Shown here piece after piece: positions 47,444 through 48,518 of a stretch of 64,000 nt of DNA. The DNA is from Saccostrea echinata (lineage: Eukaryota). A program made the translations under genes and the position numbers. The DNA is taken from assembly GCF_033153115.1 (NCBI RefSeq), contig NW_026889779.1, positions 29,760,001-29,824,000 of the forward strand, read 5' to 3'. Within the stretch, counting starts at the first letter, position 1. Each line of letters opens with the position of its first letter. Below the pieces are notes generated by a model. The model was not told where the DNA came from. It saw only the letters and a program-made list of their open reading frames with translations, and searched no databases.

Positions 47444-48518
47444 AATTCTGTTTATTAATCATAATAAGATAATATACCTTCCTATAAAGATGCCATGTTT
47501 CTGAAGAAGTCTTCGTTTCATCGAACGACACCCAAGAGTCTGTCCACTGAACATCATTTCTTCCTTGGAGTAGAATATATGTAAATCATATGAAATTTTT
47601 AACATTTGTATGAGTTCACTAAAAATAATGAGCTATCATCAAAATGTAGATGTTACTGACGATTTTTCTAGATTTGATCAATCTATCAAAAAAGAAAGAT
47701 GAAATAAAACACAAGCAATATTACCTGAATAGCCCTTATTGCCATATCCACATTGTATGATCTCCTTCTTCTCAAATTAAGTCTGGTCATGCGTCTTTTC
47801 AAATGTCTACAGCTTAATTATTTTAAAAAATAATGCATAAAATATATCTTAAAATGGGAGATTTTAACTTCAATCACTATTTCTTAAATAACAAATATAT
47901 ACATACAAGTAGAACACGCATATAAACAATCTTTGAATGAGACTATAAATCTAATGTATAGGAACTTTATTACTCTTAGAGAAAATATTAGCCTATACAG
48001 GTACTTATATTATCATAACTTATGACAATTAATAATACCTACCTTATTATTTTCACACCATAATTACTCCAAAGAAGGAATATGATTTCTTTATTATCGT
48101 ATCCGTTAAAGAAATATTCTTGAATCTTTTCGTCAACAAACGCCATGTTGTGCAATGACTGCTGGGAATGTTATCCGGTTATAGAAAGTACCAGTCGATA
48201 GAGCGATGGTGCGATGACACGATGACGATAGTGCGATAAAGCAATAACGATGACACGATATAGCATCGCGTCATCACTATCGCGCCATCGCATCATCGCT
48301 ATCGTGCCATCGCGTCATCGCGCTATTGCTTCATCGTACCATCGCATCATCGTCATCTCATTGTCGTGCCATCGCATCATCGTTATCGCACCATCGCTTC
48401 ATCGTTATCGCATCATCGCTTCATCGTCATTGCATTATCGCGTCATCGCACTATCGACTCAAACCTCGATGGTGCGATGATGCGATAGTGAACTGCATGG
48501 CCCTATCCGGATTCCATA
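47444..48518 (-). repeat. Inverted duplicate of element C's left end, including transposase exons 1-3
   Basis: Reverse complement of 38176-43102 with element D removed. Exon copies at 48146-48043, 47812-47725 and 47563-47478 retain their splice sites. Confidence 0.9.

Follow-up and report, generated by a model that had tools for sequence, protein, structure and literature searches.

Several described transposable elements bear on the locus analysed here. In the mariner sublineages Dromar7 and Dromar11, the 3' part is replaced by the 5' part (PMC4161770), and the Rhodnius mariners Rpmar49 and Rpmar17 show the reverse replacement (PMC4678618). How such rearrangements arise is described as elusive in the mariner survey (PMC4161770). 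Galileo has terminal inverted repeats (TIRs) that are long and repetitive within, extended by recombination or conversion, and TIR length varies within the family (PMC3573991). MuDR carries two convergent genes with promoters in its TIRs; in Mu killer, as described in the same passages, both ends come from the transposase side, the halves meet in an inverted duplication with read-through from a flanking gene, and the locus silences (PMC3440606). The Drosophila KP protein is a 207-aa N-terminal transposase fragment with a few foreign terminal residues, formed by internal deletion, and its repression has been shown (PMC4938643). IS3EU elements are marked by TA..TA termini and 6-bp target-site duplications (TSDs) (PMC10045372).

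The window, a 64,000-nucleotide stretch of the genome of the oyster Saccostrea echinata (contig NW_026889779.1), holds an element that we compared with these systems. It is one of 24 independent copies of an IS3EU-type lineage in which a 1.07-kb mirror of the left end takes the place of the right end. We consider it probable that break repair templated on the left arm formed this end, and that the lineage spread as a shortened parasite moved by the transposase of two-gene elements. The oyster form resembles the mariner sublineages in that an inverted copy replaces one end, the TIRs are unusually long, and amplification, likely non-autonomous, proceeded from one progenitor (PMC4161770, PMC4678618). 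The pattern of mariner- or Galileo-type end replacement, with an inverted end copy, a shared breakpoint and later amplification, was found here. The mariner forms, as the cited passages describe them, are short MITEs without a transposase open reading frame, whereas the oyster form kept the whole transposase gene, lost a second gene, repeated the event in nested fashion, and has an arm that is a spliced, polyadenylated transcription unit. Like Galileo, it has long, internally repetitive TIRs of varying length; the Galileo passages cited place the longest TIRs in copies without transposase sequence, whereas the oyster arms recruit expressed coding exons (PMC3573991). With IS3EU and GingerRoot it shares TA..TA termini, a 6-bp TSD and an integrase-like DDE transposase (PF24764) with a helical N-terminus, but unlike those elements as described in the parts cited, it has kilobase TIRs that hold transposase exons 1-3, and it has lost its partner gene (PMC10045372, PMC6839031).

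New in this analysis are the occurrence of end replacement in an IS3EU-type element with two genes, the nested recurrence of the event, the fact that the transposase gene was kept whole, and a spliced, polyadenylated RNA from the new arm. One genome holds the whole series, from the parent type with 356-bp TIRs through arms of 1.07, 1.42 and 2.63 kb, together with conversion tracts, so that successive rearrangement steps can be read at base level. Our literature searches found no description of these features, and a Repbase entry for the family may exist.

Structure of the window element

The element lies at 38176-48518 on the plus strand and is 6,483 bp long without a nested insertion and the extra TSD copy that this brought. 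It starts with TATGG and ends with CCATA, and GATTCC stands on each flank (38170-38175 and 48519-48524), in agreement with the prediction of a perfect TSD around the whole. A global alignment confirmed that the right arm (47444-48518, minus strand, 1,075 bp) repeats the left end in inverted orientation, namely 38176-39009 plus 42870-43102. With the nested insertion omitted, the arms show 1,041 matches and 10 mismatches over 1,051 aligned bases and 40 gap columns, mostly in the terminal 8-bp repeat array. Comparison of the window with itself gave inverted matches of 38001-39009 with 48721-47677 and of 42860-43102 with 47686-47444. As the original prediction had it, the ATG and the GT/AG sites of exons 1-3 are undamaged in both arms. 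The arm junction is at 47444 in the window and two bases further in in most copies.

The outer part of the left arm (38176-39009, plus strand) contains the ancestral TIR of about 350 bp with its 8-bp repeat array, exon 1 (38532-38635) and exon 2 (38874-38961), and the inner part (42870-43102, plus strand) contains exon 3 (42983-43068). Between them, in transposase intron 2 and in the left arm only, sits a nested 3,852-bp non-coding element (39010-42861) with terminal inverted repeats, flanked by an 8-bp duplication, AGATTGAT; its termini read ATGGCACG...CGTGCCAT. Transposase exons 4-9 follow at 43241-46126 on the plus strand, which makes nine exons in all. The spliced frame is open over 386 aa, but the nearly invariant Asp of the DGYDKL motif is missing and other conserved sites are altered. 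An ancestral AATAAA is retained 3' of the transposase stop (46147-46152, plus strand). On the minus strand are the AATAAA of a former HECT ubiquitin-ligase gene (46260-46265) and the last exon of that gene (46670-46905; Pfam PF00632, E 7e-07, above the cut-off), its sole remnant, with a premature stop in its own frame. The right arm carries exon 1 at 48146-48043, exon 2 at 47812-47725 and exon 3 at 47563-47478.

An apparent open reading frame at about 47170-47350 was considered as a further HECT exon and rejected. It lies inside a MITE of about 345 bp between TTAA sites (47004-47348), within the last HECT intron, and this MITE has many 73-80% matches elsewhere; the 13 loci behind weak matches to this frame (L039-L051) hold nothing but that MITE. 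The left TSD of the window element lies inside the terminal TIR of a related, older MITE of about 420 bp (37743-38178 and 48525-48806), and this MITE itself lies inside the TIR of an older relative, which gives three nested TATGG ends.

Ancestral form and spread of the long-arm lineage

The ancestral layout is kept in only two copies. Each has 356-bp TIRs and a transposase gene that converges with an 11-exon HECT gene over 20-22 kb, the introns of the HECT gene being swollen by other repeats. Copy A is 22,201 bp long (C10:7979935-8002135; L038/L054/L061) with the TSD TGTTCA, and copy B is 19,829 bp long (on C1) with the TSD GAATCG. The middle exons of the HECT gene were found in these two candidates only (2/2), and the derived form retains only the last HECT exon. 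The claim that the right arm stands where the 5' part of the HECT gene used to be was thereby borne out. The N-terminus of the HECT partner presumably carries SAM-like, ubiquitin-like and UIM-like motifs, which were read by eye. From the TIR ends to the two start codons the distances are 47 and 29 nt. Since near-identical TIRs drive convergent genes in A and B, convergent promoters were already the parental layout, in which the parent type resembles MuDR (PMC3440606).

The termini TATGG...CCATA occur in the window copy and in further derived and ancestral copies, and the 6-bp TSD in both ancestral copies too. Transposase exons 1-4 fit the public gene model P0001, which is identical to copy B at 143 of 151 residues. 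The Crassostrea virginica protein P0002 is identical to copy B at 325 of 353 residues (92%) and matches PF24764 (E 4e-34). This is an integrase-like DDE transposase without an N-terminal HHCC domain, and its N-terminus is modelled as two helical bundles. On its termini, TSD and transposase domain, we assign the element to the IS3EU type. IS3EU elements can have a HECT partner gene; our literature search found no description of one. A tblastn search of the window and 10 kb on each side found no second IS3EU-like gene.

Derived copies were sought with a 701-bp probe across the arm junction. Near-full-length matches came from at least 18 places and variants from at least 6 more, among the best 40 of 910 candidates scored. 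The 106 bp just inside the junction were present in 25/25 candidates, so the inverted arm is not peculiar to this copy but is a family trait. The search for further copies with the same breakpoint, proposed with the original prediction, thus gave 25 genomic copies of the long-arm form. We count 24 as independent because L035 appears to duplicate L034 (99.66% over 9.3 kb including flanks), as a haplotype or a segmental duplicate. Derived copies measure about 5.6-9.3 kb, barring those with large insertions. Among the latter, L034/L057 (C24) and L035/L056 (C62) carry an insertion of about 6 kb, LINE-like by its reading frame, that splits exon 3 of the right arm.

Each of 21 of the 23 scored derived copies has its own perfect 6-bp TSD; L017 and L022 have mismatches, and L026 was left unscored. 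Distinct perfect TSDs indicate that the rearranged form transposed many times after it arose. They also show that the inverted junction is no assembly error. A collapsed or flipped repeat is a general risk for any inverted repeat, and nothing more speaks for such an artefact here. The same junction occurs on many contigs with different TSDs, copy-specific indels and insertions tell the arms apart, and the join of exon 3 to the HECT exon in RNA contigs, described below, needs the inversion. We therefore rejected this explanation, whose probability we regard as negligible.

Copies cluster in places, with three within 22 kb on C52 and two adjacent on C12, and in L022 another left end stands 252 bp upstream. 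The clusters and the nested TATGG ends are hints of local hopping and insertion into the family's own ends; the flanks of most other copies hold no family sequence.

The rearranged form outnumbers the ancestral type by 24 to 2. Its youngest clade comprises 10 copies with 0.54% divergence. Copies A and B differ from each other by 1.2% and from derived copies by 4.6%. Both lack the roughly 100 bp that follow the junction, which makes them sisters of the parent and not the parent. The assembly does not contain the direct parent, so neither the first junction nor the size of the deletion can be read. As a route to the first long arm, a break at or near the right end may have invaded the homologous left TIR. 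Synthesis would have run some 720 bp beyond the TIR before the strand was rejoined within the last intron of the HECT gene, and a microhomology join would have closed the repair. Being shorter by well over 10 kb and having a perfect left end on either side would help long-arm copies to transpose in trans, moved by transposase from two-gene elements.

The arm was lengthened twice more, and every extension seen copied left over right. In L030, L031 and L033 the arm measures 1.42 kb and overlies what is left (239 bp) of its predecessor, and L032 has a 2.63-kb arm over remnants of both older arms. The extension joins have microhomologies of 2 nt (TG) and 4 nt (CATT). The breakpoint of the second extension (GATAGATTG/ATC; L030/L031/L033) lies within the 8-bp insertion site of the nested element (39002-39009), either by coincidence or because this is a fragile site.

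Within copies, the two arms match at 90-99% over 1.1-2.6 kb. Some changes that a single copy has to itself stand in both of its arms, three each in L026 and L029 and one each in L020, L027 and L036. In the arm tree, built without six arms (the internal tree was built without L026 and L029), the left and right arms of the window copy are sisters. The right arm of L016 is a mosaic that regained exon 1, and the left arm of L028 acquired a right-arm allele. Private changes shared by both arms, sister arms and mosaics together indicate gene conversion from arm to arm.

Changes shared among derived transposases look neutral (33 nonsynonymous, N, to 10 synonymous, S; p=0.32), as do those in exons 4-9 (30 N:7 S). 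Purifying selection is seen between copies A and B (4 N:8 S, p=0.0005) and between the derived majority and B (9 N:13 S, p=5e-5). All 10 youngest copies share a 1-bp deletion in exon 6 ahead of the catalytic Glu. The window copy and L028 alone retain open spliced transposase frames, and each of these frames is damaged at nearly invariant residues. The neutral pattern, the frameshift in the amplified clade and the lesions in the open frames argue that the long-arm lineage was likely mobilised in trans. Copy B has an open 386-aa transposase frame. The HECT gene is frameshifted once in each ancestral copy, so no fully intact helper was found, which counts against this reading.

The same data bear on whether the long-arm form is instead an autonomous subfamily that needs no helper, with HECT dispensable and long arms as its normal TIRs. 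Most copies do retain the nine transposase exons, two frames are open, and run X5, recorded under another organism label, contains a contig of spliced transposase that has the alleles of the young clade but lacks the exon-6 deletion. The source element of that contig may or may not have long arms, and with neutral change in exons 4-9 and damage at nearly invariant residues in both open frames, we find autonomy very unlikely. The X5 contig is 98-99% like L022. Together with the identity of P0002 to copy B, it makes horizontal transfer, or a live source lineage elsewhere, possible. The family is a natural test of the role of the HECT partner, as HECT-less copies spread 24 to 2.

RNA from the right arm

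RNA contigs from four runs (X1-X4), which represent at most two samples of one study, were aligned to L016. The runs are not labelled RNA on record and were treated as such on the strength of their GT..AG joints and one poly(A) end; the contigs are unstranded and show presence, not absence. Joints of exon 1 to 2, exon 2 to 3 and exon 3 to the HECT exon (L016 2060 to 2640) occurred in 4/4 runs. Either arm could supply the first two joints. The third can form only if the arm is inverted, and the strand follows from its splice polarity. On window coordinates it runs from 47478 to the HECT acceptor at 46905, with an RNA end near 46247. The poly(A) end itself was seen in one run (X4), 13 nt past the old HECT AATAAA. 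Inward transcription of the right arm, part of the original prediction, is thus supported by spliced contigs from the minus strand. The label "antisense copy" proved misleading, since the arm, read inward from its own promoter, has the same sense as the transposase mRNA. Lengthening of a TIR can therefore capture a promoter and exons and yield a new spliced RNA. This RNA is likely a by-product, with the copied promoter and exons meeting an old HECT acceptor and poly(A) signal.

By alleles, the contigs of X1, X3 and X4 belong to the young clade (15/15), and that of X2 is near L022, L030 and L032 (12/15). No contig matched the alleles of the window copy itself (7/16; 8-9/15). Right-arm contigs had depths of 60.7, 6.6, 14.9 and 148 in X1-X4, and transposase-specific contigs about 4-8 in X1-X3, from which we draw no ranking of genes. 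In high-depth contigs the first 70 nt of exon 1 are uncovered, so the exon-1 frameshift of expressed copies, described below, is deduced from linked alleles only. Spliced transposase contigs were present in X1, X2, X3 and X5. No joint of exon 3 to the HECT exon was among the joints listed for X5.

A silencer built into the element had been proposed on the example of Mu killer; here, read-through hairpins or dsRNA from convergent promoters would seed small RNAs against the family. The long-arm form has the same architecture, with both ends and a partial transposase from the transposase side (PMC3440606), and the likeness of its arms, given above, speaks for such a hairpin. There are also arm contigs that lack splicing, and contigs that span both 3' ends. 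Beyond the poly(A) site, X1 and X3 contigs reach or enter the last transposase exon, and a minor overlap of convergent RNAs may therefore exist. The halves of Mu killer meet, as described, whereas the oyster arms stand at least 4.3 kb apart with two poly(A) signals between them. Both signals are ancestral and retained in derived copies, one is in use, and the right-arm poly(A) end falls about 75-100 nt short of the transposase 3' end. The arm RNA has the same sense as transposase mRNA, spliced transposase contigs occur in the same runs, and the form went on transposing through several bursts. On this evidence the proposal of a built-in silencer was not supported, and we rate a role of this kind as quite unlikely.

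The predicted peptide and repressor readings

In the window copy, the splice of exon 3 to the HECT exon is out of frame and predicts a 96-aa product ending in -IGRRYI*. The original prediction of a product of about 93 aa was right about the out-of-frame splice and the early stop, and its length needed correction. An in-frame fusion of transposase and HECT was rejected, as the splice is out of frame in 26/26 rows with an acceptor (27 rows in all). A 28-bp deletion in exon 1, found in the right arm of 9/10 youngest copies, gives a phase that fits the HECT exon, but the frame stops after 21 codons.

The N-terminus was modelled on P0001 with a 61-sequence alignment (mean pLDDT 86.6). The model has two three-helix bundles, at residues 2-44 and 55-102, with pLDDT of about 90 or more. 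They show middling likeness (Z 5-7) to helix-turn-helix (HTH) domains including those of Tc3, SETMAR and Mos1. A Foldseek search gave no match at E<=0.001, and a search of solved structures by sequence with A1 gave 0 hits. The HTH_21 profile matches 19 of the 61 relatives and Clr5 matches 4. According to the model, the cut in the peptide falls where the second bundle's third helix begins. The idea of a DNA-binding-only peptide therefore survives for one predicted whole HTH, while the second would have two of its three helices.

Such a peptide could act as KP does: an N-terminal piece of transposase, 95-96 aa long, would bind to the repeat array of the TIR and so compete with the transposase. 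Like KP, it would join a short N-terminal fragment to a few foreign residues; the KP fragment is described as the product of an internal deletion (PMC4938643), whereas the oyster unit is a second, duplicated one whose frame is lost in two thirds of copies. The spliced, polyadenylated RNA and the likeness of the modelled N-terminus to HTH domains would suit a repressor. The frame is open in the window copy and seven others, conversion restored it in L016, and the X2 contig comes from an older clade whose nearest copies include one with an open frame. Shared changes in exons 1-3 of both arms (13 N:10 S) have a synonymous excess (p=0.006, uncorrected for sites that recur or are linked by conversion), which weakly suggests that the N-terminal frame is under selection and speaks against our reading.

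Against this stands the state of the right arms. The peptide frame is open in 8/24 right arms and 18/24 left arms, and broken in 16/24 and 6/24, respectively; the copies are not independent, as 9 share the one 28-bp deletion. Amplified copies would keep the frame under a KP-type role, and 9/10 of the youngest have lost it. RNA in 3/4 runs matches this frameshifted clade, the peptide ends where the third helix of the second HTH begins, and the stop more than 600 nt before the poly(A) site would be compatible with non-productive RNA. The proposal of a KP-like repressor was not upheld by these counts, and we judge it unlikely. Present evidence leans against a real repressor function, and a role like that of Mu killer or KP is unsupported.

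A broader scheme would join several of these observations. The element would have swapped its HECT helper for a second promoter and DNA-binding exons, and so gained a TIR-encoded regulator, an HTH peptide or a decoy RNA, that conversion repairs. On this view, the most recent burst would represent an escape variant in which the repressor frame was deleted and which multiplied faster than the others. We regard this scheme as rather unlikely, and spread as a shortened parasite remains our preferred reading.

Outside the element, the window also holds two further foldback-like elements, with arms of 21-bp and 23-bp tandem repeats (51547-54171 and 35259-36671), and tandem arrays with units of about 80 bp, 430/590 bp and 147 bp (59608-62655 and 27568-28675).
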